64,000 nucleotides of DNA from Actinomycetes bacterium (GCA_021792455.1 JAJYUP010000003.1:5669-69668), one strand, 5' to 3'. Shown: positions 9,381 to 48,870, counted from the first letter of the stretch. The notes: generated by a model not told the origin, from the sequence alone. Program-made: numbers and translations.

Positions 9381-11633
9381 GTGAGGCGCATCTTCGCGGT
9401 GACTACGGCGGCAGCTCTGATCGGGACGGTTGCGCCGATTGCTGCTGCGTCGGCCTCTGGCAAGCATCGCTCTGCCCCCACTGCCGCCAAGGGCAAGACA
9501 CCCGCGTGCGTGCAGACAGAGCTCGGCCCAAACACGGTGTGCGCGCGCGATCTCCAGCATGAAGCTGTCACCTCCAGCCACATCGCAAAGGAAGCGGTGA
9601 GGGCGGGCAAGGTGCACAGCTCCGCGATAACCACCGAAAAGCTGAACGCCGGAGCGGTCACGACGTCGAAGCTGCACAAAGAAGCAGTCACCTCCGGCAA
9701 GCTCGCGGCTGCCGCCGTGATCGCAGGCAAGATCGCCGACGGCGCCGTGCTCTCCGGCGACCTCAGCGCAGGTTCTGTGATCGCGGGCGACCTCGCGTCC
9801 GGCTCTGTGATCGCCGGAGACATCGCGCCCGGCGCGGTTGGCGGTGCGGACATCGCCTCCGAAGCGATCACCTCCGTGCAGATATCCAAGACCGCAGGCA
9901 TCCTCGGCACCCAGCTCGCCGCCGAAACGATCGCGACCGGCCAGCTCGCAAACGGTGCGGTGACCGAAGGCAAGCTTGCAGCCGAAGCCGTCAACACCGG
10001 CCAGCTTCACAAGGCCGGCGTCAGCGCCGAAAAGATCGCCGCCGAAGCCGTGACCGCGAGCAAGCTCGCAGCTGAAGCGGTCGGCACGGCTGCGCTCGCG
10101 GATGAAAGTGTCACTGAAGCAAAGATCGGCAAAGAAGCCGTCAACACCGGCCAGCTTCACGCCGAAGCGGTGACCGAAGGCAAGATCGGCAAAGAAGCCG
10201 TCAACACCGGCCAGCTTCACGCCGAAGCGGTGACCGAAGGCAAGATCGGCAAAGAAGCCGTCAACACCGGCCAGCTTCACGCCGAAGCGGTGACCGAAAG
10301 CAAGATCGGCAAAGAAGCCGTCAACACCGAACAGCTCAAGAACGGCTCGGTCACAGAAGGAAAGCTCGCAAGCGAAGCGGTCGGCACGACGAAGATCGCC
10401 AAAGAAGCGGTCACGGGCGAAAAGGTCGCCAAAGAAACGATCACCGCGGCCCAGCTCGCAAGCGAAGCGGTCACCACTGCAAAGATCGCCAAAGAAGCCG
10501 TCACCGAAAGCAAGATCGGCAAAGAAGCCGTCAACACCGAACAGCTCAAGAGCGGCTCGATCACAGAAGGAAAGCTCGCAAGCGAAGCGGTCGGCACGAC
10601 GAAGATCGCCAAAGAAGCGGTCACAGGCGAAAAGGTCGCCAAGAACACGATCGAAGGCGGCACCAAAGCCGGCAACATCAAGGCGGGCACCGTCACTGGC
10701 GGAAGCGAAGGCGACCTCGCCGAACACACGGTCGAAGGCGCCGCGGGGACCTTCGACAACGTCAAGAAGGGAACCCTCGACCACGAAGACCTCAACGCCA
10801 AAGCTGAAATCGAAGGGGGCCAGCTCTCTGCCACAGCGAACATCCTCGGCAGCCAGCTCTCTGCCACAGCGAACATCCTCGGCAGCCAGCTCGACGCGAA
10901 AGCTGAAATCTCTGGCGAACAGCTGAAGAGTGGGACCATCACGGGCAGCGAGATCGCCGAACGCACGATCGCCGCCAAGAACATCGAACTCGGTGCAGTC
11001 GGCAGCGCACAGCTCGCCAGCGAAGCGGTCACAACTGAAAAGCTCGCCAGCGAAGCGGTGACAGCCGCGAAGATCGCAAAAGGCACGATCACACACGAAC
11101 AGATCGCCTCCACCGCAGGGATCCTCGGCAGCCAGCTCGCCGCCGAAGCGGGGATCACAGGCAAACAGCTCTCAGCGACCGCAGGGATCCTCGGCAGCCA
11201 GCTCGCCGCCGAAGCGGGGATCACAGGCAAACAGCTCGCCGCTGAAACGGTCGAAGGCAGCGCAGGCACGCGCCCTGAGATCAAGCCAGGTACGGTCGGC
11301 CTCGGCAGCCTCACGGGCACCGAAACAGGGTTCAAGACCTATGCTCTCGAACCCGTCGAAGCAGGGGTGACGAGCGCGAAAGCTGAAACCTGCATCGAAT
11401 ATGACAAGGCGGTGAGCATCCCGACGGGCGACACCGTCGCCTCGATCGTGCTCACCAAGGCGCCTGAATCCGCGCTCGAACGGCACCTCGAGGTCGGGCC
11501 TCCTCACCTCAACTTCAACGACACGCTCGTGCTGCTGAAGGTGTGCAACATCGAGGCCGCTGCAGGCACCGAACACGAACCGATCACCGTCACGAACACC
11601 CCCGAAGTCGGTCTGCTCATCCTCGGCAAATAG
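9381..11633 (+). CDS. Secreted fibre/adhesin-like protein with 10-residue EAVTxxKIxx repeats
   Basis: GTG start after GGAAGGAG; signal-peptide-like N-terminus ending AAASA; long run of decapeptide repeats; distinct C-terminal domain. Confidence 0.8.
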   Translation: MRRIFAVTTAAALIGTVAPIAAASASGKHRSAPTAAKGKTPACVQTELGPNTVCARDLQHEAVTSSHIAKEAVRAGKVHSSAITTEKLNAGAVTTSKLHKEAVTSGKLAAAAVIAGKIADGAVLSGDLSAGSVIAGDLASGSVIAGDIAPGAVGGADIASEAITSVQISKTAGILGTQLAAETIATGQLANGAVTEGKLAAEAVNTGQLHKAGVSAEKIAAEAVTASKLAAEAVGTAALADESVTEAKIGKEAVNTGQLHAEAVTEGKIGKEAVNTGQLHAEAVTEGKIGKEAVNTGQLHAEAVTESKIGKEAVNTEQLKNGSVTEGKLASEAVGTTKIAKEAVTGEKVAKETITAAQLASEAVTTAKIAKEAVTESKIGKEAVNTEQLKSGSITEGKLASEAVGTTKIAKEAVTGEKVAKNTIEGGTKAGNIKAGTVTGGSEGDLAEHTVEGAAGTFDNVKKGTLDHEDLNAKAEIEGGQLSATANILGSQLSATANILGSQLDAKAEISGEQLKSGTITGSEIAERTIAAKNIELGAVGSAQLASEAVTTEKLASEAVTAAKIAKGTITHEQIASTAGILGSQLAAEAGITGKQLSATAGILGSQLAAEAGITGKQLAAETVEGSAGTRPEIKPGTVGLGSLTGTETGFKTYALEPVEAGVTSAKAETCIEYDKAVSIPTGDTVASIVLTKAPESALERHLEVGPPHLNFNDTLVLLKVCNIEAAAGTEHEPITVTNTPEVGLLILGK
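10122..10330 (+). repeat. Near-exact 60-bp tandem repeat (about 3.5 copies) inside the fibre gene
   Basis: Sequence lines starting 10141, 10201 and 10261 are identical except for one base; encodes KIGKEAVNTGQLHAEAVTEG. Confidence 0.95.
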
Positions 11634-11636
11634 GGG

Positions 11637-12464
11637 ATGGACGAGGGCGCGCAGCGAGCGGCACCAGGGTCCTCGCCCCCCGCGCAGGGGGGCGGCCCTC
11701 CGCTCGCTGGCCCTGAGTCCCAGCTGCCGCTTCCCCCGCCGAGCGGGGGCATCGCACTGAGCGGCGGGACGGAGGCGACGGGCAGCGCGGGGCAGGGTCA
11801 GAGCTCCCCGTCAGCTGCCTCGCCGCAACCGCAGCGGCGGGCGCGGCGCCCCCTGCGTCTGACGCGTCGCTCGCTCAGTGTCGCCGCCATCGTCCTCGGC
11901 GCTGCGGTCATCGCCCTCGTCGTGGTTGCGATCACAGGCGCCTTCAACTCTCACCCTTCCTACACGAGGATCACCGCGAAGCCGTCGGCTCAGGCGAGCA
12001 CTGAGGCGAGGGAGGGTGTCAGGCAGCCTGGGCTCGTGACGGTTCGGGGCGCCGCCCCCTTCACCCTCCACTACCCAAAGGGGTGGCGGGTGATGTCGGC
12101 GGCGCAGCTTGCGAAAGCGGGCAGCGGGGCGGCAGCGGGGATCGTCTCAGAAGGCGGCAGGGCGGTGCTCCTCGTGCGTCCGAAGAAGCCGCTGACGCAG
12201 CCGATATCGAAGCTCTCAGAACAGCTGACGCGCTCGCTCAGCAGCCGCTTCACCGACTTCAAGCTTCTCAGCGTTGGGACGACGACGACGCTTGCCGGCC
12301 CAGCATGGGTCTACACCTTCGAGCGCAGCAGGGTTGGGCTCGTCCAGAGCGAGGTCGTCGTCTCGACGAAGGGCGCCGCCTACGAGATCGACGTTGCGCT
12401 GCACGCGGGCGCTGACAGGGCGGCGTCGCAGATAGGGGAGATCATCCACTCCTTCGAGGACTGA
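11637..12464 (+). CDS. Single-pass membrane protein with extracytoplasmic PsbP/DcrB-like domain
   Basis: Pro/Gly-rich N-terminus, TM segment VAAIVLGAAVIALVVVAI, FTLHYPKGW motif, ends IIHSF. Confidence 0.6.
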   Translation: MDEGAQRAAPGSSPPAQGGGPPLAGPESQLPLPPPSGGIALSGGTEATGSAGQGQSSPSAASPQPQRRARRPLRLTRRSLSVAAIVLGAAVIALVVVAITGAFNSHPSYTRITAKPSAQASTEAREGVRQPGLVTVRGAAPFTLHYPKGWRVMSAAQLAKAGSGAAAGIVSEGGRAVLLVRPKKPLTQPISKLSEQLTRSLSSRFTDFKLLSVGTTTTLAGPAWVYTFERSRVGLVQSEVVVSTKGAAYEIDVALHAGADRAASQIGEIIHSFED

Positions 12465-12564
12465 GGGTCGGCTTCGCCGTCGCGCGCTCACGCCGCGCCT
12501 CAGGCTCGCAGGGTCGTGCTGAGTGGCGCCACTTCGAGAGGCGCACAGCCGCTACGCTGGGGTC

Positions 12565-15438
12565 GTGTCCATCCTAGACAGAGCCCTGAACATCGGGGAA
12601 GCGAAGAAGTTCAAGGAGTACGAGAGTCGCGTCTCGCGGATCACTGCCTTTGAGCCTGAGCTCGAGCACGACACCGAAGAGGAGCTGAAGGAGCGGATGG
12701 ACCTCCTGCGGGAGCACGCAGGCAAAGGCGAGCCGCTCGATGAGCTGCTGCCAGAGTGCTTCGCAGTCGTGCGTGAGACGGGCAGGCGGCTGCTTGGCAT
12801 GCGCCACTTCGACGTTCAGCTGATCGGTGGGATGGCCCTTCACGACGGCCAGATCGCGGAGATGAAGACCGGTGAGGGCAAGACGCTGACGGCGACCCTC
12901 GCCGTAGTGCTCAACAGCCTCGCGGTGTGGGGTTCTGACCACAGGCGCTCAGGGCAGCGCAAGGGCGTCCACGTCGTCACCGTGAACGACTACCTCGCCC
13001 GGCGCGATGCGGAATGGATGGGCCCGATCTACAACGCGCTTGGCGTCTCTGTGGGGGTCCTGCAGAACATGCAGTCCTATGAGGACAAGCATCAGGCCTA
13101 CAGCTGCGATGTCGTCTACGGCACGAACTCCGAGTTCGGCTTCGACTACCTCAGGGACAACATGGCGAAGGACCTCGCAGAGAAGGTTCAGAGGGGGCAC
13201 CCCTTCGCGATCATCGACGAGGTGGACAACATCCTCATCGACGAGGCGAGGACGCCGCTGATCATCTCTGGCGCCCCTGAACAGGCTGCTGACCTCTACG
13301 CCACCTTTGCGCGCCTCGCACCCACACTGACCCAGGGCAAGACCCCTGAAGGCCTCGATCCGAGGACGAGAAAGGAATTCGTCGCCGACTTCGACTACGA
13401 GGTCGACGAGAAGAACAAGACCGTCTCGATCACTGAGCAGGGCGTCGGCAAGGCGGAGCGCTTCCTCGGCATCGACCATCTCTACAGGGCGGAGAACGGC
13501 CACCTCGTCAACCACCTCATCCAGGCGCTGCGCGCAGAGTCGCTCTACAAGCGCAAAGTCGACTACGAGGTGATCGATGGCGAGGTGAAGATCATCGACG
13601 AGTTCACAGGCAGGATCCTGGAGGGCAGGCGCTGGTCTGAAGGGCTGCACCAGGCCGTCGAGGCGAAGGAGGGGGTGCGCGTCCAGGAGGAGAACCAGAC
13701 GCTTGCGACGATCACCTACCAGAACTACTTCCGCCTCTACGAGAAGCTGTCCGGGATGACGGGGACGGCGCTGACCGAGGCGACGGAGTTCATGAAGATC
13801 TACGAGCTGCCCGTCGTGCAGATCCCGACGAACATGCCGATGGCGCGGGTGGACCGCAACGACCAGGTCTACAAGACGAAGGAGGGCAAGTGGACGGCCG
13901 TCCTCCGGGAGATAGAGGCACGTCACCAGATCGGTCAGCCGGTGCTCGTCGGCACGATCTCCGTAGAGGTCTCTGAGCTTTTGTCCGACCGTTTGAGCAG
14001 GCGCGGGATAAAGCACACCGTGCTGAACGCGAAGCCAGAGCATGCGGCGAGGGAGGCGGACATCATCGCGGAGGCGGGCAGGCCCGGCGCGGTGACGATC
14101 GCGACGAACATGGCAGGTCGCGGCGTCGACATAAAGCTTGGCGGCAACGCTGAGCACATGAGCCACCTCGAGCTGCTGAAGGAGGGGATCGCGCCTGGCG
14201 AAGAGCGATACGACGAGCGCTTTCAGCAGCTTCTGCCATCGATCGAGGAGAGGGTCGCCGCCGATCGCGAGCGCGTGCTCGCCGCCGGCGGGCTGTTCAT
14301 CTGCGGTACGGAGCGCCACGAGAGCAGGCGGATCGACAACCAGCTGCGCGGTCGCTCTGGCCGTCAGGGCGACCCCGGCGAGAGCAGGTTCTTCCTCTCC
14401 GCTGAGGATGACCTGATCAGGCTGTTCGCGGGCGACCGGATCTACAAGATCCTCGATCGTCTCGGCAGCGTCGATGAGGAGGGCAACGAGGAGCCGATCG
14501 AGGCGAAGATGCTCTCGAAGCAGATCGAGAAGGCCCAGCGCAAGGTCGAGGAACAGAACTTCCTCACTCGCAAGCGTGTGCTCGAGTACGACGACGTGAT
14601 GAACGAGCAGCGGCGCATCGTCTACGCCTACAGGGACAACGTTCTCGAAGGCAAGGACATGAGCGAGGAGGCGCGCGAGCAGATCGACGCCGTCATACAG
14701 CGCACGATCGAGCAGCACACTGAAGAGGAATACGTCGAGGACTGGGATCTCGACGGGATGCTGCTGGCGCTCGAACAGTTCTTCCCGCTCGAGATCGGAT
14801 CTGATGAGCTCGACCGTGAAGGGCTCGACCGGATCACGCTGGCAGAGGAGATCTCAAAGAGTGCGATGGAGCGCTATGAGCAGCGCGAAGATGAGCTTGG
14901 GCCGGAGCTGATGAGGGCGCTCGAGCGCTTCCTGCTGTTGCAGGTCATCGACGAGCGCTGGCGCGAGCACCTCTATGACATGGACTATCTGCGCGAGGGC
15001 ATCCATCTGCGCGGGTTCGCGCAGATCGACCCGCTCGTCGCCTACAAGAACGAGGCATACACGCTCTTCAACGACCTGATGAACACGATCTGGACCGACT
15101 TCGCTCGGATGATCTTCAACGTGCAGGTGAGCGTGCAGGAGCAGGGCGGTCCCCCCGCGCCGCCGCCGTTGCCGCTTGCAGCCGCTGGCAGTGCGACTGC
15201 GCCAGGCAGGGTCTCCTACTCAGGCGGCAGCACCGTGATGGGCGCAGGCGCGATCGCGGCGGCGGCGATGGCTGCCGGCGCGGGCGAAGCCGGCGGCGAG
15301 CTGCCGCAGCAGCCTTCAGAGCTCGCGGAGGCTCTGATCGTTGAGCAGCGCACCGTAGACGCAGAGCACCAGCTGGGGCGAAACGAGCCATGCTGGTGCG
15401 GCAGCGGGAAGAAGTTCAAGAAGTGCCATGGCGCGTAG
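12565..15438 (+). CDS. secA: Preprotein translocase subunit SecA
   Basis: MKTGEGKT, VTVNDYLA, DEVDNILIDEARTPLIISG, QLRGRSGRQGDPG, SEC-C motif CWCGSGKKFKKCH; start GTG 12565 inferred. Confidence 0.99.
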   Translation: MSILDRALNIGEAKKFKEYESRVSRITAFEPELEHDTEEELKERMDLLREHAGKGEPLDELLPECFAVVRETGRRLLGMRHFDVQLIGGMALHDGQIAEMKTGEGKTLTATLAVVLNSLAVWGSDHRRSGQRKGVHVVTVNDYLARRDAEWMGPIYNALGVSVGVLQNMQSYEDKHQAYSCDVVYGTNSEFGFDYLRDNMAKDLAEKVQRGHPFAIIDEVDNILIDEARTPLIISGAPEQAADLYATFARLAPTLTQGKTPEGLDPRTRKEFVADFDYEVDEKNKTVSITEQGVGKAERFLGIDHLYRAENGHLVNHLIQALRAESLYKRKVDYEVIDGEVKIIDEFTGRILEGRRWSEGLHQAVEAKEGVRVQEENQTLATITYQNYFRLYEKLSGMTGTALTEATEFMKIYELPVVQIPTNMPMARVDRNDQVYKTKEGKWTAVLREIEARHQIGQPVLVGTISVEVSELLSDRLSRRGIKHTVLNAKPEHAAREADIIAEAGRPGAVTIATNMAGRGVDIKLGGNAEHMSHLELLKEGIAPGEERYDERFQQLLPSIEERVAADRERVLAAGGLFICGTERHESRRIDNQLRGRSGRQGDPGESRFFLSAEDDLIRLFAGDRIYKILDRLGSVDEEGNEEPIEAKMLSKQIEKAQRKVEEQNFLTRKRVLEYDDVMNEQRRIVYAYRDNVLEGKDMSEEAREQIDAVIQRTIEQHTEEEYVEDWDLDGMLLALEQFFPLEIGSDELDREGLDRITLAEEISKSAMERYEQREDELGPELMRALERFLLLQVIDERWREHLYDMDYLREGIHLRGFAQIDPLVAYKNEAYTLFNDLMNTIWTDFARMIFNVQVSVQEQGGPPAPPPLPLAAAGSATAPGRVSYSGGSTVMGAGAIAAAAMAAGAGEAGGELPQQPSELAEALIVEQRTVDAEHQLGRNEPCWCGSGKKFKKCHGA

Positions 15439-15459
15439 GCGCTGATATCGTCCACGCAG

Positions 15460-37655: not shown

Positions 37656-40393
37656 TGAGAGCCTGCTGCGACAGATCTCGCCAGTGGCTCTCAGGGCTTG
37701 CGATCGCGACCATGCTGAGCGCGGTGAGCCTCGCTGCATGCGCGGCGTCCACTGCGGAGGCCTCTGCCGATGGGTTGATCCTCGGCTCAGGCGGCCCCTT
37801 CGCGACACCGGAGATCGTGGAGGCCGCAGGCTCGCACATCTCGACCTCGAGGGCGGACAGCGCGAGCTCGAGGTCGAGCAGAGCAGGGACTGCGAGAAGC
37901 AGCGAAACGGCGACGAGCACCGCGGCCTCGAGCTCGAGCACGACGGAATCAGGTTCGAGCACCTCCTCGAGCACGACGAGCACGACGAGCACGACGAGCA
38001 CGGCGACCACGACGAGCACGACGAGCACGACGAGCACGGCGACCACGACGAGTGCGACGAGCACGACGAGCGAACGCAGTGAAGTGAGCACGTCGACGGG
38101 GACGAGCTCGACGACTTCGCAGGCCGAAGGGGAGGCGCCAGGCGCAGCGGGGTCCCCGGGCCTCACCTCGGCTGAGAGCACGAGCACGGCGACCACGACC
38201 GTCACGACTGCGGGCAGCCGCTCGGGGTCTTCTGAGGAAGGGCAGAGGGCGAAGCCCGGCGGCGGCAGCGGTGCGAGCCGCACCGCCGGGACCGCGAAAG
38301 GGCAGAGCCTCAGCGGCGTGAAGCGCGGCGCAGGCACCCGCGCCGCAGGGCAGAGCGGCGAAGGCGCGAGCACGGGAGCGGTGAGCCTCGGCACGCCGCC
38401 GCTGCCCTTCTCGCTGCGCGCGCCGATCACAGGAGTCCCCGCCTTCTTCATCGAAACTCTGAGCGTGCCGCCGTTCCTGCTGCCGATCTATGAGGCGGCA
38501 GGAATCGCCTACGACGTTCCTTGGGAGGTGCTCGCGGCGATCAACGAAGTCGAGACCGACTACGGCCGCGACCTGAGCATCTCGAGCGCCGGCGCGGAGG
38601 GCTGGATGCAGTTCCTGCCGCAGGAGTGGCGGATCTACGGAGTCGACGCGACAGGCAGCGGCTACGCCGACCCGTACAACCCCGCAGACGCGATCTTCGC
38701 GGCAGCTCGGTATCTCGCCGCCGCCGGTGGAAGCTCCCACATCCGCGCGGCGGTATACGCCTACAACCACTCCGAGGCATACGTCGCAGCGGTGATGATG
38801 CGCGCGCAGCTGCTCGCAGGGATGCCGCCGCAGCTGCTCTCCGCCCTGATGAGCCTGACCGAAGCACGCTTTCCGGTGCACGCCCCCGCGCACTTCTCCG
38901 ACGGCTTCCCTGAGGTGGCCTCGCCGAAGGGTCACCTTCACCCGATCGCAGGGACGACGATCTACAGCGTGCCGAGGGCCCCAGTGATCGCGGTCGCGGA
39001 CGGCACGATCACCGCGATCGGGCGATCAAGGGCGCTTGGTCTCTACGTGCGGCTGAGGGACGCCTACGGCAACCGCTACACCTACGCCGACCTCGGCAGC
39101 ATCGCAGGTCTCTACCCGGTGCTCTCGCCGCGCAGGCTGCTTCCGGCGCGGAGCAGGCGGCTGCCAGTCGGCCCGCCGCCGAAGGCGCCGGCGAGCGCGG
39201 GCGTGCAGCGCCACTCCCCGCTGAGCGAAGCAGCGACGAGGTCAGGACTGGCCTTTGGGCTCGTCGAAGCGCTGCGAGAGCCCCCAAGGGGGATCTCAGC
39301 GAGCGGTGGGCGGCAGCGGCCTCTGAGCAGAGCGGCGCGAGAGCAGTCCCGAAGCTTCACCGCCGGCATCGAGCGCGTGACCCTGCGCCCGCTGAAGGTC
39401 GGCGCCCACGTGATCGCAGGCACGATCCTCGGGCACCTCGCCGGTGGGGGCGATGGCCACCCTGGAAGCGGGGTGCAGCGTGGAGGCGAAGGGCACCTCG
39501 AAGGCGGCGGTGAAGCACACATGCTCTTCCAGATACAACCCGCCGGAGCCGGCCTGATCGATCCGAAGCCGATCCTCGACGGCTGGGTCGCGCTCGAAGA
39601 CACGCAGATATTCAAAGCGAAGGGCGAGAACCCCTTCTTTGCCACCTCACCGACCCCTGGCCAGGCGCTGTTGGAGTCCGCGGGCCAGCTGCAGCAGCAG
39701 GTGCTGCGCAACAGGGGGATCCGGCTGGAGGGCTGCATGCGGGCGGAGGTGGCGGGCGGTGCGATGGAGCGGCAGGTGCTCGCGATGCTCGAGCTGCTGT
39801 CGGTTTCAGGGTTGAACCCGACGGTGAGCGGCAGAGGCTGCAAAGCGCTGCGGGCGTCTCTGCGACCTGGCGCTCGCTTCGGCGTGAGCGCAGCTTCCAA
39901 CGATGGGCCAAGCGCGCGGAGCAGCGGCGCTGCAGCAACCGCGCTCGCGCTGCAGCCAAGCGCCGCCGCAGGGTCGGCGCTGAGGCGGGCGGCGAGTGGC
40001 GAGACGGTCGTGATCACCGCGATAAACGGCCTGCCCGTCGCCTCACAGACAGGGCTTGGCGGCCTCGACGACGCCGTAGAGCGCAAGCTGATCGGCCTGC
40101 AGGCGACGATGAAGCCTGCGGCGATCGCGGGACCGGTGCGCTACCCAAGCGCAGAAGGCGTCGACATCGAACACGCCGCGCGCTCGCTGAGGGTCTCCTT
40201 CGCGCCGCCAGTTGCGGGCGGCAGGTCGAGCGGCGCGGTCGCTGCCGCCGCAAGCGCGAGCTCAGGGCTCTCTGCCTCGGCGTGGCAGGCGCTGATCGCG
40301 CGACTCGCGCAGATCCCAAGCCCTGCGGTTGCGAGCACTCCGAGCGCAGCGGCGATCCCAGATGCGCAGCTTGGGAGTGAAGGGGGCCCCTGA
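37652..40393 (+). CDS. Secreted lytic transglycosylase fused to a degenerate M23-like domain, with Ser/Thr-rich linker
   Basis: VPWEVLAAINEVET, AGAEGWMQF, AAARYL, YAYNHS (SLT); PVIAVADG..YTYADL and AHMLFQI (M23 fold without the metal ligands). Confidence 0.85.
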   Translation: MMRACCDRSRQWLSGLAIATMLSAVSLAACAASTAEASADGLILGSGGPFATPEIVEAAGSHISTSRADSASSRSSRAGTARSSETATSTAASSSSTTESGSSTSSSTTSTTSTTSTATTTSTTSTTSTATTTSATSTTSERSEVSTSTGTSSTTSQAEGEAPGAAGSPGLTSAESTSTATTTVTTAGSRSGSSEEGQRAKPGGGSGASRTAGTAKGQSLSGVKRGAGTRAAGQSGEGASTGAVSLGTPPLPFSLRAPITGVPAFFIETLSVPPFLLPIYEAAGIAYDVPWEVLAAINEVETDYGRDLSISSAGAEGWMQFLPQEWRIYGVDATGSGYADPYNPADAIFAAARYLAAAGGSSHIRAAVYAYNHSEAYVAAVMMRAQLLAGMPPQLLSALMSLTEARFPVHAPAHFSDGFPEVASPKGHLHPIAGTTIYSVPRAPVIAVADGTITAIGRSRALGLYVRLRDAYGNRYTYADLGSIAGLYPVLSPRRLLPARSRRLPVGPPPKAPASAGVQRHSPLSEAATRSGLAFGLVEALREPPRGISASGGRQRPLSRAAREQSRSFTAGIERVTLRPLKVGAHVIAGTILGHLAGGGDGHPGSGVQRGGEGHLEGGGEAHMLFQIQPAGAGLIDPKPILDGWVALEDTQIFKAKGENPFFATSPTPGQALLESAGQLQQQVLRNRGIRLEGCMRAEVAGGAMERQVLAMLELLSVSGLNPTVSGRGCKALRASLRPGARFGVSAASNDGPSARSSGAAATALALQPSAAAGSALRRAASGETVVITAINGLPVASQTGLGGLDDAVERKLIGLQATMKPAAIAGPVRYPSAEGVDIEHAARSLRVSFAPPVAGGRSSGAVAAAASASSGLSASAWQALIARLAQIPSPAVASTPSAAAIPDAQLGSEGGP
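37968..38072 (+). repeat. 9-bp (AGCACGACG)n minisatellite encoding a Ser/Thr linker
   Basis: Repeated ACGACGAGC units giving STTSTTSTT. Confidence 0.9.
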
Positions 40394-40397
40394 GTCG

Positions 40398-41801
40398 ATG
40401 GCGACGATCACGCGCGAGACGAGACCGCAGCCCAGCCGGGATGCACCCGAGCGACCGCCTCACGAGCGCAGGCGCGCAGGGGCGTGGCTTGGCAGGGCGA
40501 TCGCCTTCGGCCTGCTCGCAGCGCTCGTCGGGGCGATCGCCTACCTCATCGCCTCCGGCGGCAGCGAAGCCGAATACCACCTGATGTTCGCAAGCGCCGA
40601 CGAACTGGTGAAGGGCGATCAGGTCGAGGTCGGCGGCGTGCCCGTCGGCAGCGTGAAGGCGATCGCCCTCACCCACGACTACGAGGCCGATGTGACGATC
40701 ACCGTCGAAGGGCGGCTCGTGCCGCTGCACGAAGGCACGACCGCGCTGATCAGGGTGCCTTCGCTCTCGAGCGTGGCGAACCGCTACATCTCGCTTGCCC
40801 CAGGGCCGAACAGCAACCGCCCCCTGCGCTCAGGCTCGACGCTGCCGACGAGCAGGACTGAAGGCGCCGTCAATCTCGACCAGCTGTTCAACACGCTGAA
40901 CCCGAAGACCCGGCACGGCCTGCAACAGCTGATCGAAGGATTCGCGAGCCAGTACGAGGGCGCAAGCCGTGACGTGAACATCTCTACGAGGTTCTTCCCA
41001 CCTGCGCTGCAGGCGACCGACCATTTCTTCAACGAGCTCGTTCGCGACGAACACGTCTTCAACGGCTTCCTCGTCGAGGCGGCGAAGGCTCTGAGCACGC
41101 TCGCCGAACATCGCAGCGAGCTCGCCGGGGTCGTGAACAACGGAGCCCACGCCTTCGCGGCGATCGGCTCAGAGGCGGAAAGCCTCGAAGCGGGGATAAA
41201 GGAGCTTCCAGAAGCCTTCAAGGAAGGCAACCGCACCTTCGCGCGGCTGCCAGCGGCGCTTGCGGCGCTGCGGAAGCTCGTGAACGTCTCGAAGCCGAAC
41301 ACGAAGAAGCTCGCACTGTTCTTCGAACGCCTGGATCCCCTGCTGAAGCTGGCGACGCCCGTGCTGAGGCAGCTGAGCACTGCGATCTCGAAGCCTGGGC
41401 CAAACAACGACCTGACCGAATTCGCGCTCGCCCTGCCAGGGCTTGCGAAGTCGCTGAAGAGCGCCTCGCCAAGCGGGGTGAAGGCTCTGCACGAATCGGT
41501 GCCGGTGACGGCGTTCTTCGGCCCCTACTCGCCCGACCTGATCGGGCTCTTCCACGACTTCGGGCAGGAGGCGGGCTACTACGACGGCAACGGCCACTAC
41601 GTCCGGGTGAGCCCTGACTTCGCCGATTTCAGGTACGCAGAAGAAAAGCTGATCCCCGTCACCCCGCAGGAAGGCCTCGAAGGGCTGAAGACCGGTCAGC
41701 TGACGCGGTGCCCCGGTGCCGCGACCCAGCCAGCCGCCGACGGCTCCTCGCCCTACACCGACGAAGGCAAGCTCGGCTGCAACCCGCAGGAGCTTCCATG
41801 A
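40398..41801 (+). CDS. MlaD/Mce family protein 2
   Basis: TM, LVKGDQVEVGGVPVGSV, RYISLAPGP, LDQLFNTL. Confidence 0.9.
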   Translation: MATITRETRPQPSRDAPERPPHERRRAGAWLGRAIAFGLLAALVGAIAYLIASGGSEAEYHLMFASADELVKGDQVEVGGVPVGSVKAIALTHDYEADVTITVEGRLVPLHEGTTALIRVPSLSSVANRYISLAPGPNSNRPLRSGSTLPTSRTEGAVNLDQLFNTLNPKTRHGLQQLIEGFASQYEGASRDVNISTRFFPPALQATDHFFNELVRDEHVFNGFLVEAAKALSTLAEHRSELAGVVNNGAHAFAAIGSEAESLEAGIKELPEAFKEGNRTFARLPAALAALRKLVNVSKPNTKKLALFFERLDPLLKLATPVLRQLSTAISKPGPNNDLTEFALALPGLAKSLKSASPSGVKALHESVPVTAFFGPYSPDLIGLFHDFGQEAGYYDGNGHYVRVSPDFADFRYAEEKLIPVTPQEGLEGLKTGQLTRCPGAATQPAADGSSPYTDEGKLGCNPQELP

Positions 41802-41945: not shown

Positions 41946-43421
41946 GTGAACCGCCGGCGTGGATCACTCGCAGGCAGCCCGCTGCTGATCGGTGCGCTGA
42001 CGGTCCTGATCGTGATCGTCGCCGTATACATCTCCTACAACGCGAACAGCGGCCTTCCGTTCGTACCGACCTACGACATAACGGTCGAACTGCCAGAAGC
42101 GTCGAACCTGCTTCCCGGCAACGAGGTGCGCCTCGGGGGGGCGAGGGTGGGGATCGTCGAAAAGATCGTCCCCTACGAGAATCCGCGAGACGGACGGCTT
42201 GCGGCGATCGCGAGCCTGAAGCTGGAAAAGAAGGTGGAGCCGCTGCCGGCGAACACGAAAGCGATCGTGCAGTCTGTCTCCTCCGTCGGCCTGAAGTACC
42301 TCGAACTGGAACGTGGGGACTCGAAGGCGACGATCCCCGATGGAGGCAGGATCCCGATCTCGCAGACGCGGGAACCAGTGGAGCTCTCTCAGCTGTTCAA
42401 CATGTTCAACAAGAAGACACGCGTCGCCAACCAGCAGAACCTCACGAACTACGGCAACGGCTTTGCCGAACGCGGTGCCGGCCTGAACGAAGCGATCCGT
42501 GAACTGAAGCCGCTCCTGAACCGGCTCGTGCCCGTGATGCGCAACCTCGCATCGAAGGCGACGAACCTGACGAACCTGTTTCCTTCGCTGGATCGGGCGG
42601 CGAGAGAAGTAGCTCCCGTCGCCGAAGACCAGGGCAGGCTCTACACCGCGCTCGACACGTTCTTCGGCGCCTGGGCGAAAGTGTCGCAGTCGCTTGAAGC
42701 GTCGATCGAAGGCGGCCCAGCCGCCCTGCACGAGGCGACCCACTCCTTCGCGTATGAGGCGCCCTTCATGCGCAACAGCACGGAGTTCATGCGCCTGCTG
42801 CAGCCGAGCGCAGAAGCTCTGATCAAAGCGGCGCCACCTCTGAGCCATGCCTTCGAAGCGGGCTCGAGGACGCTTGCGAGCGCTCGTTCCCTGAACAGCG
42901 AGATCGCCTCCTCCTCGCGCTCCGTCCAGGCCTTCGCCGAAAACCCGATCGTGGAGCTCGCCCTCGAAGACCTGACGCACACGGCGACGATCGGCACGCC
43001 GTTCATCTCTTCGCTTGCCGCCGACCAGGTCGACTGCAACTACATAACGCTCGCCTTCCGCAACGTCGCAAGCGCGTTCTCCGAGAGCATCGGCATAGGC
43101 ACGCTCGCCCGCGCGAGCGTCGTGCTGCCGCCGGATGGGCCTGACGCGGAAGGCAGCCCCTCCTCTGCGCCCGCGAACGGCGGCGGCTCAGCTCTCTATG
43201 CGGAAGCGAATCACCTCCACTACAACCCCTACCCGAACATCGCGACCTGCGAAGCGGGCAACGAGCGCTACGCGGCGGGGCAGACGGTGATCGGGCACGC
43301 CCCAAGCTCAGGTACAGGGCGGGAATTCACGAAGCGCACCGAAAACCTCTTCGGCGAACCGTATCCGAAGTCGACTCTGAAGGACCTGTCGACAAAAGCA
43401 GCGTCAGGTGGCCACCGATGA
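41946..43421 (+). CDS. MlaD/Mce family protein 3
   Basis: TM, LLPGNEVRLGGARVGIV, GLKYLELERG. Confidence 0.9.
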   Translation: MNRRRGSLAGSPLLIGALTVLIVIVAVYISYNANSGLPFVPTYDITVELPEASNLLPGNEVRLGGARVGIVEKIVPYENPRDGRLAAIASLKLEKKVEPLPANTKAIVQSVSSVGLKYLELERGDSKATIPDGGRIPISQTREPVELSQLFNMFNKKTRVANQQNLTNYGNGFAERGAGLNEAIRELKPLLNRLVPVMRNLASKATNLTNLFPSLDRAAREVAPVAEDQGRLYTALDTFFGAWAKVSQSLEASIEGGPAALHEATHSFAYEAPFMRNSTEFMRLLQPSAEALIKAAPPLSHAFEAGSRTLASARSLNSEIASSSRSVQAFAENPIVELALEDLTHTATIGTPFISSLAADQVDCNYITLAFRNVASAFSESIGIGTLARASVVLPPDGPDAEGSPSSAPANGGGSALYAEANHLHYNPYPNIATCEAGNERYAAGQTVIGHAPSSGTGREFTKRTENLFGEPYPKSTLKDLSTKAASGGHR

Positions 43422-44920
43422 GGCCGCGCTTCTGGAGAAGGCGCGACCGGGTGCCCGTCTCTGAGCTGCGGCGGACCAACTCGCTGCGCTTCGGCTCCGG
43501 GCTTCTGATTCTGCTTGCGATCGGCGTCTACTTCGGGTTCGCCCAGCACATCCCCTTCACCCACGGCTATCGCCTGAAGGCCGTCTTCGCCTCTGCACAG
43601 AACATCGCGCCGAGATCGCCAGTGAGGATCGCGGGCGTGACCGTCGGCGATGTCGTCTCCGTGCAGCGCGAGGGAGAAGCCGGGTTGGTGACGATGGAAA
43701 TCCAGCAGAGCGGCCTGCCGATCCACCGTGACGCGACCCTGAAGATCTGGCCGCGCCTGTTCCTCGAAGGCAACTGGTTCGTGGAACTTCGCCCAGGCAC
43801 GCCATCCTCGCCGACGATCAGCTCCGGGTCGACGATCCCGATCACCCAGACGGCTGACCCCGTGCAGCTCGATCAGGTGCTCGACATCCTCCACAAAGGC
43901 ACGAGGGCTGACCTCCAGGTGCTGCTCCAGGAATATGGACAGGCCCTGAGCAGCAGGCCAACGAGCGCTGAAAACGCAGAACAGGCGCCAGAAGTGAGGG
44001 GCAAGACAGGCGCGGAAGCGCTGAAAGAAGCCGCCCGCCACGGTCCTGCAGCGCTGCGCGGCGGTGCGATCGTCCAGCAGTCCCTGGGCGGAGTCGAACA
44101 GCACGACATATCGAAGCTGATCTCCGGCATAGAGCGGTTCACGAAGGGCTTGAGCGCGAACGAGGCCGCCCTTGGCGCGTTCGTCGACCACTTCGACACC
44201 TTCCTCGAAAGCTTCGCAAACCAGTCCTCGAGCCTTCGCGCCGCCGTCGCGCAGCTGCCTGGCGCGCTGAGATCGACGCGGGGAGCGTTCGCCGCGCTCG
44301 ATGGAGCGCTTGCGCCGATCGAATCGTTCTCGAAGGCGATCACCCCCGGCGTGAGTGAGACAGGTGCGACGATCGATGCGGCGCTGCCATGGATAAAGCA
44401 GCTGGACGCGCTGCTCACCCCACACGAGCTCGGCGGCCTGGCCGAAAGCCTGAGTGAAGCAAGCCCTGCGCTCGCGGGCCTGATCGGCGGCCAAAAGGCG
44501 TTCTTCAAGCAGTCGAACCTGTTCAGCAGGTGCCTGACGAAGGTCTTCTTCCCCGCCGGCGACGTGAAGCTGCAGGACGGCGCTGCAACGACAGGCAGCG
44601 AGGCCTACAGGGAATTCTGGTACCTGATGACCGGACTTGCAGGCATCGGTCAGAACTTCGACGGCAACGGCGCCTTCTCACGGTTCCTCGCGGGCGGCGG
44701 CGGGCACACGCTCGTCTCAGGGCCGACCTCGATCGTCGGCGTGACAAGCAGACCGGGATCGAAGCTGATCGCGCGGGCGACCCTGAGCCCCGAAGGAACG
44801 AGCCCACGCTTCCCAGCGACCGAGCCTCCCTACGAGCCGATGGTCGCCTGCGACACGCAAGCGGTGCCTGACCTGAACGGGCCGCTCTCCCATGGGCCGG
44901 CAGATGGGAGCGGCGGATGA
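43418..44920 (+). CDS. MlaD/Mce family protein 4
   Basis: TM, SPVRIAGVTVGDV, GNWFVELRPG, VQLDQVL. Confidence 0.9.
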   Translation: MRPRFWRRRDRVPVSELRRTNSLRFGSGLLILLAIGVYFGFAQHIPFTHGYRLKAVFASAQNIAPRSPVRIAGVTVGDVVSVQREGEAGLVTMEIQQSGLPIHRDATLKIWPRLFLEGNWFVELRPGTPSSPTISSGSTIPITQTADPVQLDQVLDILHKGTRADLQVLLQEYGQALSSRPTSAENAEQAPEVRGKTGAEALKEAARHGPAALRGGAIVQQSLGGVEQHDISKLISGIERFTKGLSANEAALGAFVDHFDTFLESFANQSSSLRAAVAQLPGALRSTRGAFAALDGALAPIESFSKAITPGVSETGATIDAALPWIKQLDALLTPHELGGLAESLSEASPALAGLIGGQKAFFKQSNLFSRCLTKVFFPAGDVKLQDGAATTGSEAYREFWYLMTGLAGIGQNFDGNGAFSRFLAGGGGHTLVSGPTSIVGVTSRPGSKLIARATLSPEGTSPRFPATEPPYEPMVACDTQAVPDLNGPLSHGPADGSGG

Positions 44921-44957: not shown

Positions 44958-46403
44958 ATGAGCTCGCAGGGGGCTCACCACGGACGCGGCATAGCGGACC
45001 AGATACGGCGCTACCGCACCGCGTTCATCGCGGTGGTGACGATCATCGTGATCGCCGTGTTCGTCGGCGGATACGTGCTCGTGCACGAGCGGCTGCCGCT
45101 GCCAGGTGAAAGCACCTTCGTGCTGAAGGCCGACTTCAGCAGCGCCTCAGCGATCGCCCCAGGCCAGGGTCAGGCGATCACGATCGCGGGCGCGAAGATC
45201 GGCGAAGTCGCCGCCGTCGAGCTGCGCCATGGTGTCGCAGAGGTGACGATGGACATCACCCCGAAGTACGCCCGCTACATCTACCGCAACGCGACCCTGC
45301 TGCTGCGCCCAAAGACGCAGCTGAAGGACATGACGATCGAGATCGACCCTGGCAGCAGATCGAGCGGGCGCATCAAAAGCGGTTACACCTTCGGGCTTGC
45401 GAACACCGCCCCCGACATCGACTTCGACAAGTTCCTCGCCGCTCTCGACGTCGAAACGAGGCAGTATCTGCAGGCGCTGATCGCCGCGGCAGGCGAAGGC
45501 CTGAAGCACAACGGCAGAGCGCTGTCCGCCGTCTTCCGGCGCTTCGACCCGATCACGCGCGCGATCGAACGGATAACGAGCGAGCTGCAGCACCGCAACG
45601 TCGAGATCGAAGACTCGATCCACAACTTCCAGCTGCTGATGAGCGCCCTGGGCAACAAGGACAAGCAGATCGCAGAAGTCGTGCAGTCGGCGCAGAAGGT
45701 GCTCGGCGTGTTCGCAAAGCAGGATCGCGCCGTCGAACAGACGCTGCATCTGCTGCCTGGGGCGCTGGGCAAGACGAGGCAGGGCCTCGGCAAGCTGACA
45801 GTCGCCGCGGAAGCGCTTGGGCCGGCGCTTGGCAGGCTGCACCGCTTCGCGACCGCGCTTGCGCCCGCCCTGAAGGCGAGCAGGTCGCTGTTCAAGAGCA
45901 CGACGCCTGTGATCGGCAACGAGATCGCCCCGTTGACGAGGCAGATCACCCCCGTCTTGAAGAAGGTGACGCCCGCGACGAAGCAGTTCGATGAAGCTCT
46001 GCCAAAGCTTCAGAGCAGCTTCGCGGTGATAAACGAATTCTTCAACGAGCTCGCCTACAACCCGTCGCCGAAGCAGGCGGGATTCCTGTTCTTCCTGCTG
46101 TGGGCCGACCACGACTTCAACAGCGCCGTGAGCTCTGCAGATGCGAACGGGCCCGTCGGTCGCACGCTGCTGTACCTGAACTGCGAAGTCGCCTCGATCC
46201 TCGGAGGAATCGCTGAAGTCAACCCTGACGTGCGGCTTCTGATCGGGCTGCTGAAACCACCGGAACGGGCAGAATGCGAGGCGAAGGGGCTGCCCGTCGC
46301 CGGCAGCACGAGTGCAAGCAGCGCAAGCGTGCGCAAGGGTGGGCGCGCGAGCGCGGCGGCGAGCTCGAACGTGGCCGGCAAGAACGTGGGCGGGAAGAGA
46401 TAG
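44958..46403 (+). CDS. MlaD/Mce family protein 5
   Basis: TM, GQAITIAGAKIGEV, LRPKTQLKDMTIEIDPG. Confidence 0.9.
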   Translation: MSSQGAHHGRGIADQIRRYRTAFIAVVTIIVIAVFVGGYVLVHERLPLPGESTFVLKADFSSASAIAPGQGQAITIAGAKIGEVAAVELRHGVAEVTMDITPKYARYIYRNATLLLRPKTQLKDMTIEIDPGSRSSGRIKSGYTFGLANTAPDIDFDKFLAALDVETRQYLQALIAAAGEGLKHNGRALSAVFRRFDPITRAIERITSELQHRNVEIEDSIHNFQLLMSALGNKDKQIAEVVQSAQKVLGVFAKQDRAVEQTLHLLPGALGKTRQGLGKLTVAAEALGPALGRLHRFATALAPALKASRSLFKSTTPVIGNEIAPLTRQITPVLKKVTPATKQFDEALPKLQSSFAVINEFFNELAYNPSPKQAGFLFFLLWADHDFNSAVSSADANGPVGRTLLYLNCEVASILGGIAEVNPDVRLLIGLLKPPERAECEAKGLPVAGSTSASSASVRKGGRASAAASSNVAGKNVGGKR

Positions 46404-47909
46404 ATGCAGAAGCGCGCGCCAACGCTTGCGAACATCCTCGTGATCTGCCTGTTTGCGCTGAGCGTGTTCGGCCTGCTGCTGTTCCTGTGGGAGACGTTCG
46501 GCGGCAGCGCGCCGCTGCAGGCGCGCGGCTACCGCTTCACCGTCACCTTCCCGCGCACGCTCGAGCTCGCAGAACAGTCGGAAGTGAAGATAAGCGGCGT
46601 GCCAGTCGGCCACGTGATATCGCTTGCGTCGAGCAGGGAAGGGCTGACGCGGGCGACGATCGAAATTGACAGCCAATACGCGCCTCTGCACGTCGACGAT
46701 CACGTGATCCTGCGTCAAAAGACGCTCCTCGGCGAGACCTACGTCCAGGTGAAGCCAGGCAGTCGGAGCGCACCCGTGCTGAGGAGCGGCGCCGAACTGG
46801 GGCGCGCGAACGTCGAACCGTTCGTGACCCTCGACGACATACTCTCGACGTTCAACAAGAAAGTGAGGGAAGCGTTCAGGACGTGGATGATCGCAAGCGC
46901 TGAAAGCTTCAACGGAGAGAGTGAAAACCTGAATCTGTCGTTCGCTGACATCCCCCCCTTCGTCGAAAGCGCGAACCGCGTGCTGAAGCTGCTCGTCTCC
47001 CAGCAGGGCGCGGTGCGCGCGCTCGTACGTGACACTGGGGATGTGTTCGACGCGCTGACGGAAAGATCCGGCCAGCTGCGCGAATTCACGGTCGCCGGCA
47101 GCGAGGCCTTCAGTGCGGCGGCGCGCGCGAGCAGTCAGTGGGCAGCCGCGTTCAAGCAGCTGCCCGCATTCGAGCGCAACTCGAGCGCCGCCCTGCGCAG
47201 CCTGAACAGGCTGGCCGCCGACGCAAACCCGCTGCTCGTGCAGCTGAAGCCCGCAGAGCGCGCGCTCACCCCGCTCGTGCGGCAGACGGAGCGCTTCGCG
47301 CCCACCTTCGACTCCTTCCTGACGGCCCTCGGCCCGTTGACGAAAGCGGCGAAGAGCGGCCTGCCGGCTCTGTCGAAGTCGCTTGCGCTGACGACCCCTC
47401 TGCTCGAAGCGCTGCGGCCAGTGCTCCACAACATCGATCCCTTCCTTCAGTACACAGACGAATACCTGCCTTCGCTGCAGTCCTTCTTTGCGAACCTGAC
47501 TGCCGCAAGCGAGGCGATCATCGGCAACTCGAACGTGAAAGGCACGACGGTGAGACAGCACTACGTGCGCGCCGAGCAGTACGTCGGGCCCGAATCGCTT
47601 GCGGTGTATGGCAAGCGGATCGGCACGAACAGGGCAAACCCATACAGCCACCCAGGCGCGTTCAGCGAACTTGCAAGCGGGCTGCAGGTGTTCAGCTCTG
47701 CGAGCTGCGCAAACAGCGCGCCATCGGTCGAAGACCGTCCAAACGAACAGGTCTCACAGCAGCTGATCGAACAGCTGATTGCACTGAAAGTGGTGAACGC
47801 TCCTGGAAGCACGACGAACTCCGTACCTGCTCCCGCATGCAGGCAGCAGGCGCCGTTCACCTTCAACGGCAAGACGAGTGAATTCCCGCACGTGAGCGCC
47901 TCAGAATAG
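46404..47909 (+). CDS. MlaD/Mce family protein 6
   Basis: TM, SEVKISGVPVGHV, KTLLGETYVQVKPG, VTLDDIL. Confidence 0.9.
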   Translation: MQKRAPTLANILVICLFALSVFGLLLFLWETFGGSAPLQARGYRFTVTFPRTLELAEQSEVKISGVPVGHVISLASSREGLTRATIEIDSQYAPLHVDDHVILRQKTLLGETYVQVKPGSRSAPVLRSGAELGRANVEPFVTLDDILSTFNKKVREAFRTWMIASAESFNGESENLNLSFADIPPFVESANRVLKLLVSQQGAVRALVRDTGDVFDALTERSGQLREFTVAGSEAFSAAARASSQWAAAFKQLPAFERNSSAALRSLNRLAADANPLLVQLKPAERALTPLVRQTERFAPTFDSFLTALGPLTKAAKSGLPALSKSLALTTPLLEALRPVLHNIDPFLQYTDEYLPSLQSFFANLTAASEAIIGNSNVKGTTVRQHYVRAEQYVGPESLAVYGKRIGTNRANPYSHPGAFSELASGLQVFSSASCANSAPSVEDRPNEQVSQQLIEQLIALKVVNAPGSTTNSVPAPACRQQAPFTFNGKTSEFPHVSASE

Positions 47910-47910
47910 G

Positions 47911-48870
47911 ATGATGAGGATGGCGGAGGGCGCAGGAGAGCAGGGAGAGGTGCACAGGGCAGATGAGGCCGATGTCGGCGAAAGCGGGCAGCCGGACGGT
48001 GCACGGTGGAGAGCTGGGGGCGATGGTGATCGAGCGTTGCCAACCGACGAGGAGGCGGCCGCCGCCTCCTCGTACGACCACCACCCCGAGCAGGTGGTGA
48101 GCGGCGCGCAAGACGGCAGATGGTCGATCCGGTGCATAGACGTCGTGAAGCGGCTTGGAGGCGTGCCGGTGCTGAACGGCTTGAACGTCGCGTTCCCAGA
48201 CGACACGATCACCGTCGTGCTTGGACCGTCAGGTACGGGAAAGAGCGTGCTGATAAAGCACGTGATCGGGCTGATGTTCCCCGACGCTGGGGATGTCCTG
48301 GTGCATGGGCAGTCGGTGCCGAAGATGACCCTGCCGCAGCTGCTTCAGATGCGTCGCAAGATCGGAGTCCTCTTCCAGGATGGCGCTCTGTTCGGGTCTA
48401 TGAGCGTCTTCGACAACATCGCCTTCCCTCTGCGCCAGCACACAGACCTTCCTGAGGCGAAGATCGCAGAGATCGTGACGCAGCGGCTCGCCGACGTCGG
48501 GCTCTCAGAGGCGATCAACGACATGCCATCGCAGCTCTCAGGCGGCATGCGCAAGCGGGCGGGCTTTGCGAGGGCGCTGGTGATGGAGCCTGACATCGTG
48601 ATCTTCGATGAGCCCGACTCAGGGCTCGACCCTGTGCGCACCGCTCTGCTGTGTGAGCTGATAAAGGAGATGCATGAGCAGCACAAGGGCACCTATCTCG
48701 TAGTGACCCACGACATCGCCTCCGCGAGGCGCATCGGCGAGCACATCGCACTGCTTTGGCGCGGGAAGATCGTCGAGTCTGGTGGGGCGGAGCGGATGTT
48801 CTCCTCAGAGAACCCATTCGTGCGTCAGTTCCTGAGCGGTGCTGCAGCAGGGCCGCTGGGGATGGACTGA
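47911..48870 (+). CDS. Mce-associated ABC ATPase (MlaF/Mkl/MceG family); start uncertain
   Basis: GPSGTGKS, LFQDGALF, LSGGMRKR, FDEPDSGLDP, VTHD. Confidence 0.93.
   Translation: MMRMAEGAGEQGEVHRADEADVGESGQPDGARWRAGGDGDRALPTDEEAAAASSYDHHPEQVVSGAQDGRWSIRCIDVVKRLGGVPVLNGLNVAFPDDTITVVLGPSGTGKSVLIKHVIGLMFPDAGDVLVHGQSVPKMTLPQLLQMRRKIGVLFQDGALFGSMSVFDNIAFPLRQHTDLPEAKIAEIVTQRLADVGLSEAINDMPSQLSGGMRKRAGFARALVMEPDIVIFDEPDSGLDPVRTALLCELIKEMHEQHKGTYLVVTHDIASARRIGEHIALLWRGKIVESGGAERMFSSENPFVRQFLSGAAAGPLGMD

Follow-up and report, generated by a model that had tools for sequence, protein, structure and literature searches.

In Streptomyces, the rare A-ending codon TTA is read by a dedicated tRNA, bldA (tRNA-Leu UAA), and is enriched in extracellular and developmental genes. 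In Candida, ambiguity of the codon CUG has been linked to cell-surface variation. Among the further systems close to the one described here, the codon effect in secreted effectors of Magnaporthe oryzae depends on tRNA thiolation (PMC11705076; bioRxiv 10.1101/2025.11.10.687658), and the unusual D-arm of the selenocysteine tRNA (tRNA-Sec) is a recognition feature of its converting enzymes (PMC7609411). The subject of this study is the use of the two glutamate codons, GAA and GAG, in a 64,000-nt stretch of actinomycete DNA (the window; C131:5669-69668 of the metagenome-assembled genome (MAG) G000) and in the genus to which it belongs. In this genus of Solirubrobacteraceae, GAA is used for Glu residues that are finally exposed outside the cell and GAG for those that stay inside or are buried. 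A five-armed tRNA(UUC), termed the odd tRNA in the following, is the sole GAA reader found. Synonymous codons are assumed to yield the same protein; here, GAA and GAG evolve like two amino acids, what separates them is the side of the membrane that a residue finally faces and how exposed it appears to be. Literature searches gave no account of codons chosen according to membrane side, of anomalous GAA use in Actinomycetota, of a reassigned GAA codon or of a tRNA whose D-loop bears a hairpin. A GAA case is not reported in the Codetta paper (bioRxiv 10.1101/2021.06.18.448887), and PMC7609411 lists no tRNA structure that has a hairpin within the D-loop.

The MAG is 83% complete and comprises 242 contigs (3.15 Mb, 67.7% GC). 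The nearest named records are uncultured Solirubrobacteraceae and Solirubrobacterales MAGs, and the best DNA match of the genome is a mine-drainage metagenome.

Placement of GAA and GAG in proteins

Genome-wide codon counts are based on the gene calls of this study (2510 genes). Counts given as x/y are GAA/GAG unless otherwise stated, and fGAA denotes GAA/(GAA+GAG). For the whole genome, fGAA was 0.166, with a bimodal distribution per gene (second mode at 0.4 to 0.9, approximately 200 genes) and a marked over-dispersion (var(z) = 6). Genes encoding a signal peptide or an N-terminal anchor, as assigned by a crude predictor, contained 1629/3257 and those for cytoplasmic proteins 4862/32122 (odds ratio (OR) 3.3, p = 3e-244). 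The GAA-rich genes code for solute-binding, FtsQ, LytR_C, pilin-like, collagen-like, NHL, ASST and PASTA proteins as well as for the Mce proteins of the window, all of which are exported. Relative synonymous codon usage was equal in GAA-rich and GAA-poor genes in all codon families except Glu (0.67 compared to 0.10) and Lys, where AAA differed (0.18 compared to 0.05); usage of CAA was unchanged. Since the other codon families are identical in both gene classes, foreign DNA, contamination of the bin and the usual codon bias linked to expression can be excluded. Such a bias would shift many codon families together, which was not seen, and atpD and secA are rich in GAG.

The split was also present within genes. 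With a likewise crude topology predictor (hydropathy and positive-inside rule), fGAA was 0.381 in outside loops and 0.185 in inside loops of the same proteins (paired Wilcoxon test, p = 5e-6). In proteins with two transmembrane segments, outside parts held 145/193 and inside parts 69/519. A sensor kinase has GAA in 10 of the 13 Glu codons of its outside loop and in none of the 39 in its cytoplasmic parts, and in anti-sigma-like and anchored proteins the codon switches at the sole membrane-spanning segment. The initial annotation, which had linked GAA to export from counts made by eye and named the comparison with topology as a check, is thus borne out down to the level of residues.

Conservation of single sites was followed in the mce operon of the window genome and 20 other species of the genus (21 species in total, approximately 55% protein identity). 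The site-wise OR gives the same-codon odds in columns with Glu in both species of a pair. In eight exported proteins it ranged from 27 to 184 for GAA/GAG, compared to 0.8 to 1.8 for GAC/GAT in the same genes. Pooled values were 52 for GAA/GAG, 32 for the serine codons AGC versus TCN, which are not interconverted through one silent change, and about 1.3 to 3 for other synonymous pairs. Other rare A-ending codons reached 1.5 to 3.6 and showed no site-specific conservation. Among 129 Glu columns, 56 were more than 95% GAA and 27 less than 5% GAA, both kinds being interspersed along one polypeptide. When GAA was scored as a separate letter, the exchange GAA<->GAG had an enrichment of 5.1, similar to E<->Q (4.9) and D<->N (6.1). 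Since the other synonymous sites are saturated, mutational explanations fail; a young-codon origin was rejected on columns of 21/0 standing beside saturated GAC/GAT. Gene-level explanations (a regulon, expression level, starvation-robust codons) are contradicted by the switches inside genes and by the columns. A reading of GAA as Asp or Gln was rejected as well, because all-GAA columns show no synonym-like mixing with GAC/GAT or CAG. Local nucleotide context around GAA compared to GAG had little influence, GAA being less frequent ahead of hydrophobic codons, and no motif emerged.

The genes of the window concerned are the following (coordinates, strand, product, codon counts; genus OR as defined above):

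308..1801, + strand: ATP synthase beta subunit, atpD; cytoplasmic; 4/37; three genus-wide GAA-preferring invariant Glu sites
1103..1105, + strand: GAA codon for the invariant Glu of the MAEYFRD motif in atpD, read from the sequence; genus column 16/3
9381..11633, + strand: exported repeat ("fibre") protein; 67/5; AAA/AAG 18/41; N-terminal signal or anchor
12523..15438, + strand: SecA (Pfam SecA); cytoplasmic; 16/94; site-specific GAA and AAA columns
19878..21071, + strand: membrane-anchored protein with intermediate GAA use; 10/12; N-terminal anchor
34929..35801, + strand: secreted protein without assigned family; 14/4; one Asp
35973..37655, + strand: Mce/MlaD-family exported protein, mceA; MlaD domain; 29/12; genus OR 52
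37652..40393, + strand: exported SLT transglycosylase/M23 protein (Pfam SLT and M23); 15/21 within 38084-40393
40362..41801, + strand: Mce protein, mceB; 21/14; genus OR 37
41946..43421, + strand: Mce protein, mceC; 24/11; genus OR 82; columns aa251 20/0 and aa380 0/18
43418..44920, + strand: Mce protein, mceD; 17/9; genus OR 27; Lys column aa48 with AAA 15/2
44958..46403, + strand: Mce protein, mceE; MlaD domain; 15/9; genus OR 38
46404..47909, + strand: Mce protein, mceF (mce6 of the initial annotation); 21/10
47911..48870, + strand: cytoplasmic ABC ATPase in the same operon as the mce genes, an internal control; 1/19; 24 Asp

The earlier counts by eye for the fibre, the secreted protein (including its single Asp), mceF, the ATPase and atpD agree with this list. 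Over the 21 species, the secreted protein encoded at 34929-35801 totals 236/43, with a site-wise OR of 184 compared to 0.8 for GAC/GAT. In mceF, all-GAA columns (aa57 and aa174, 21/0 each) alternate with all-GAG columns (aa111, 0/20; aa257 and aa285, 0/21 each). The columns in the SLT region of the SLT/M23 protein are all-GAG (0/19, 0/19), and those on either side are all-GAA. For the ABC ATPase, the genus OR of GAA/GAG was 2.3, as for a synonymous pair, and the column of the Walker-B Glu was 0/19. Both the SLT region and the Walker-B Glu being all-GAG, GAG marks catalytic and apparently buried Glu and GAA polar positions of the surface type. The fibre gene is the extreme GAA user of the window. 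It consists of repeats of about 10 residues carrying GAA and AAA in register, so that repeat amplification supplies part of its GAA count; the fibre protein had no Pfam match, and no orthologue was found beside SecA in 20 other species.

Flagellin is exported by the type III route, and neither flagellin nor virion proteins pass Sec. Of 41 genomes in the genus, 20 have flagellin genes, the MAG of the window not being one of them. These genes contain 369/125, with AAA/AAG 138/130 and normal use of GAT and CAA; the all-GAG columns lie in two conserved helix motifs, RELAVQ and SEIDRV, and the all-GAA columns elsewhere. In a 51.7-kb phage fragment, which carries the odd tRNA within a tRNA array, the virion, baseplate and tail genes hold 385/120 and the polymerase and helicase genes 134/371 (OR 8.9, p = 3e-58), without a split in Asp codons between the two gene groups. 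As these proteins obey the rule without Sec, it follows the final outside exposure and not Sec passage, which counts against co-translational translocation or mRNA membrane targeting as the cause. For the phage alone, late-gene timing is a possible alternative. Clear substrates of twin-arginine translocation were not identified in the 83%-complete genome (two sub-threshold matches to PF10518, ambiguous motif scans), and WXG100/type VII substrates occurred in only one of the 41 genomes of the genus. Taken together, selection keeps GAA at polar acidic outside positions, namely in Sec-exported domains, flagellin and the phage virion, and keeps GAG at cytoplasmic, catalytic and apparently buried positions.

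In the Mce genes of outgroups (20 mce operons), GAA makes up 0.3% of the codons. Opposite conserved GAA columns the outgroup Mce proteins have Glu (29%), Asp (14%) and Gln (12%), followed by Ala, Arg, Thr and Lys and never a hydrophobic residue; opposite conserved GAG columns they have Glu (48%) and some Leu, Ile, Val or Ala. A Codetta-like genome-wide table agrees (E > D >> R). Over both tables, GAA columns face Glu at 0.24 to 0.38, Asp at 0.14 to 0.16 and Arg at 0.07 to 0.09, a profile between those of Glu and Asp; Asp stands opposite 14-16% of GAA columns and 4-6% of GAG columns. No other standard residue dominates opposite GAA columns in the outgroup alignments. The columns face mostly acidic residues, which excludes that GAA now stands for another standard amino acid. 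Only with an acidic residue at GAA do the Mce proteins keep their charge balance (0.083/0.086 compared to 0.103/0.108). A reading as Arg, hinted at by the body of the tRNA, was rejected on this unfit charge balance and on the similar share of Arg at GAA (9%) and GAG columns (11%). The residue at GAA thus appears to be still acidic and derived from Glu.

The five-armed tRNA(UUC) and its range

The odd tRNA is encoded outside the window at C154:236-331 of the same genome (96 nt). It has the acceptor stem GCGCCCG/CGGGCGC, the D-stem GCTC/GAGC, the anticodon loop CU-UUC-AA and a normal T-arm; the 31-nt D-loop holds a 7-bp hairpin with a UNCG-type loop. In an RNAalifold analysis of seven copies, all five arms were supported, with eight compensatory pairs, four of them within the extra hairpin, and the phage copy has a hairpin of entirely different sequence. 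The anticodon loop C-U-UUC-A-A is present in seven of seven copies (U34, U35, C36 and A37, as in canonical tRNA-Glu). No RNA data set was listed among the matches; contigs from runs labelled as RNA, which look DNA-like, include the hairpin and have no joint across it.

The body of the odd tRNA descends from tRNA-Arg, as judged by its sequence. It is 79% identical to tRNA-Arg(ACG), its 5' part up to G18G19 is identical to tRNA-Arg(CCG), and the acceptor stem is of the CCG type. The identity marks of tRNA-Arg are erased by insertion of the hairpin at the place of A20 and by the changes C35->U and G73->A; a further change is G37->A. A D-arm and acceptor stem of the tRNA-Glu type, as in the genome's own tRNA-Glu(CUC) with its D-arm TCGTCTAG..GGAC, are missing. 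This canonical tRNA-Glu(CUC) is present in G000 and serves GAG. A canonical tRNA-Glu(UUC) was not found by pattern search or BLAST in three near-complete genomes of one or two contigs each (G005, G134, G002), nor in G000; genomes from other genera do have it (G116, G125, G032, G019, G025). A tRNA-Sec (anticodon TCA) was also found in G000, which makes the use of selenocysteine by this organism probable.

The odd tRNA is carried by eight genomes of the genus and by one phage; full-length genomic copies were found only within the genus (G000, G002, G005, G086, G134, G140). Phage IMGVR_UViG_3300050821_006825 encodes it in an array together with at least 15 other tRNA genes (L252:5843-9491); in the same phage (L252), Aragorn calls a gene resembling transfer-messenger RNA with a long tag peptide. 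For the odd tRNA itself, Aragorn returns "tRNA-??? (ggga)" with a four-base anticodon, and the Rfam tRNA model scores 65.5 bits. With the sole GAA reader mis-called, automatic annotation would report a genus without a GAA reader and hide the anomaly.

More than 20 further members of the genus show the codon split too, several with a single-contig genome; a 200-kb sample of one member (G005) gave 0.50 compared to 0.13. It was absent in the sampled G051, G116 and G125 (same family, other genera), G019 (family f2) and G025 (family f3), and family f5, of which Mce genes alone were covered, gave no clear sign (fGAA of approximately 0.3 at a GC content of 0.62). The GAA share of Glu codons is 1.3% in G051, 1.7% in G125, 1.8% in G025 and 7% in G116. 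GAA is hence close to extinction in sister lineages, as codon capture expects. In G051 (family f1, genus g16; L086-L095), no tRNA with a UUC anticodon was detected by pattern search or BLAST, and GAA may be close to unassigned there. G025 has a second UUC tRNA-like gene (L040:1339-1541) with a D-loop insertion of approximately 125 nt and a 3' half of the odd-tRNA kind; as this genome shows no split, the lineage of the odd tRNA may predate the genus. Six named Solirubrobacterales/Thermoleophilia MAGs (L302, L305, L306, L309, L310 and L325; GC content at third codon positions approximately 0.95) encode an AtpD approximately 75% identical to that of the window. Their atpD genes have AAA at residue 366 and GAA at 446, which are A-ending-preferring sites in the genus of the window, and the phenomenon may thus partly reach beyond it.

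Readings of the GAA codon

The reading preferred here, with a probability of roughly 35%, is that GAA was taken over by the dedicated remoulded tRNA and is not equivalent to GAG on the finished protein, where it would give an altered or mixed residue. GAA would have been driven near extinction, the canonical tRNA-Glu(UUC) replaced by the remoulded tRNA-Arg derivative and the codon partially captured after its near-loss. Glu might then be altered while bound to the odd tRNA, with the extra arm as a handle comparable to the unusual D-arm of tRNA-Sec that serves SelA/PSTK, or a deliberate mixture might be delivered; either would be an advantage on outward-facing surfaces. Such a residue would unify under one principle the site conservation, the outside preference including non-Sec proteins, the replacement of the tRNA and the avoidance of catalytic sites. 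Rather doubtful is the more specific form, in which the captured codon would set a non-standard, Glu-derived acidic residue or a programmed mixture at outward, solvent-exposed sites, shared by the phages of the genus. The suggestion of the initial annotation that GAA is decoded differently from GAG gains indirect support from the codon's own remoulded tRNA and the lack of GAA/GAG interchange; a swap to a standard amino acid did not stand.

Several points weigh against an altered residue. The prior probability of a new encoded residue is very low, and that the residue at GAA differs chemically is a tentative conclusion drawn from sequence evidence. The anticodon loop CU-UUC-AA fits recognition by glutamyl-tRNA synthetase (GluRS), which makes charging with plain Glu the simplest expectation. 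The neighbours of the odd tRNA are an enoyl-CoA-hydratase-like gene, a transketolase and a transaldolase, with no gene resembling an aminoacyl-tRNA synthetase and no candidate modifying enzyme among them. GluRS paralogues, a possibility raised in the initial annotation, were not found: each genome has one GluRS-type gene (PF00749), no GlnRS and no EF-Tu paralogue compared to outgroups, other enzyme families not having been searched. In atpD, three invariant Glu residues prefer GAA: those of MAEYFRD (aa266, 16/3), IAEKGIYPA (aa365, 14/5) and VAEQF (aa446, 15/4). In cytoplasmic proteins, GAA is found at conserved Glu sites at 0.54, compared to 0.56 for GAG. Lys codons show a weaker parallel (OR 6 for AAA, a share of 0.51 in flagellin, AAA-dominant columns in SecA, mceD and flagellin) despite a canonical-looking tRNA-Lys(UUU), and a single special tRNA can therefore not account for everything.

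Site specificity extends to atpD, atpA, secA and other cytoplasmic genes, with a GAA/GAG OR of 7 to 48 in the 21 species (for SecA, 16 compared to 3.1 for GAC/GAT). SecA has GAA columns at aa253 (21/0) and aa220 (18/3) and a Lys column at aa646 with AAA 12/0. The three GAA-preferring invariant sites of atpD and aa253 of SecA are GAG in five outgroup genomes. With GAA preferred at universally invariant Glu residues, whatever residue it gives must be able to act as Glu.

The strongest rival takes the residue to be plain Glu and places selection on decoding, that is, on speed, accuracy or the availability of U34 isoacceptors. The odd tRNA, and less so tRNA-Lys(UUU), would be slow or different, a property favoured at surface positions of proteins which work outside without chaperones or turnover, and accuracy-critical sites would keep GAG and AAG. 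This is only slightly less probable than the preferred reading, and it draws on much of what has just been listed: the anticodon loop suited to GluRS and the lack of an extra synthetase or elongation factor, GAA at invariant Glu of AtpD and SecA, the mostly acidic residues facing GAA columns, the AAA parallel with a normal-looking tRNA-Lys and the GAG retained at catalytic sites, as accuracy selection predicts. However, it offers no concrete reason why the effect should be limited to outside residues, those of non-Sec flagellin and virion included. The low OR of the other rare A-ending codons (1.5 to 3.6) and the unaffected CAA do not fit either, and each of thousands of sites would have to be under strong selection acting on a silent change.

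A gene-level translational regulon, in which GAA-rich mRNAs (the exported proteome and phage late genes) would be matched to the amount or charging state of a single dedicated tRNA, has parallels in bldA/TTA of Streptomyces, in starvation-robust isoacceptors and in the AA-ending codons of fungal effector genes. The GAA-rich genes do form a functional class, and the phage has both the odd tRNA and GAA-rich virion genes. Nevertheless, a regulon is improbable, as codon use changes between the cytoplasmic and outside domains encoded by a single mRNA (0/39 compared to 10/13 in the sensor kinase) and all-GAG and all-GAA columns are mixed within one exported protein; a gene-level GAA dose would be indifferent to codon position. 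A dose pattern like that of bldA was not seen: GAA is positioned according to topology, and columns hold either GAA or GAG throughout.

The initial annotation had proposed that exported proteins of the lineage swapped Asp for Glu via GAC>GAA, e.g. against acid-labile Asp bonds, which would make GAA codons young. Asp is depleted in exported proteins (0.031 per residue compared to 0.051) and in the Mce proteins of the genus (0.033 compared to 0.057 in outgroups), GAA columns face Asp more frequently than GAG columns do, and the best DNA match of the genome, a mine-drainage metagenome, counts in favour of the proposal. For a minority of sites (Asp 14%) the proposal holds, but most GAA columns face Glu, Gln or other residues, GAA was held in 21 species with other synonymous sites saturated, invariant Glu sites of AtpD and SecA went from GAG to GAA, and no other codon family looks young. 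Neither these sites nor the maintenance of GAA versus GAG is explained, and the replacement is refuted as the sole cause and very improbable as the main one; it stands as a contributor to Asp depletion. An artefact or foreign DNA (bin contamination, horizontal transfer, expression level or chromosomal position), conceivable for an 83%-complete MAG in 242 contigs, was rejected and has next to no probability in view of the identical other codon families, the split within genes and within operons, the latter being the ground on which the initial annotation had rightly argued against horizontal transfer, and the repetition in more than 20 other genomes of the genus. The remaining probability goes to mechanisms so far unthought of.

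If the altered or mixed residue is true, the genetic code has an added meaning for the extracellular proteome in a widespread actinobacterial genus of soil and mine drainage. Otherwise, decoding may leave a lasting, residue-specific mark on proteins via a so far undescribed route. Either outcome would alter the reading of codon usage, genome annotation and secretome prediction in such lineages.

Comparison with known systems

Codon capture and reassignment (Osawa-Jukes; Codetta screen, bioRxiv 10.1101/2021.06.18.448887) share with this genus a codon near-extinct in high-GC relatives, an original tRNA that is not found, and a new tRNA of the same anticodon from another isoacceptor family followed by re-expansion of the codon. 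In contrast to these cases, GAA faces mainly Glu and Asp here, and the re-expansion is limited to outside-exposed residues. The tRNA-Sec and the pyrrolysine tRNA, tRNA-Pyl (PMC7609411), are likewise dedicated tRNAs of non-canonical architecture; here, however, a sense codon is read, no special synthetase or elongation factor was found, and no converting enzyme lies beside the tRNA. In the Candida and Ascoidea yeasts with Ser/Leu ambiguity of CUG (10.1101/2023.07.05.547863), a remoulded tRNA of mixed ancestry also reads one sense codon. CUG is not known to be placed according to membrane side in these yeasts, and mixed charging is not evidenced here.

The secreted effectors of Magnaporthe oryzae, with their AA-ending codons AAA, CAA and GAA (PMC11705076; bioRxiv 10.1101/2025.11.10.687658), resemble the present case in the A-ending Glu and Lys codons and the U34 tRNAs. 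They differ in being eukaryotic, in acting at the gene level and in including CAA, whereas the pattern of the genus is residue-level and site-conserved, leaves out CAA and goes along with a replaced tRNA. The bldA system has in common with it a high-GC actinobacterium and a rare A-ending codon with one dedicated tRNA. Unlike TTA targets, which hold one or few switch codons, hundreds of genes use mostly GAA for Glu here, and the codons are placed by topology.

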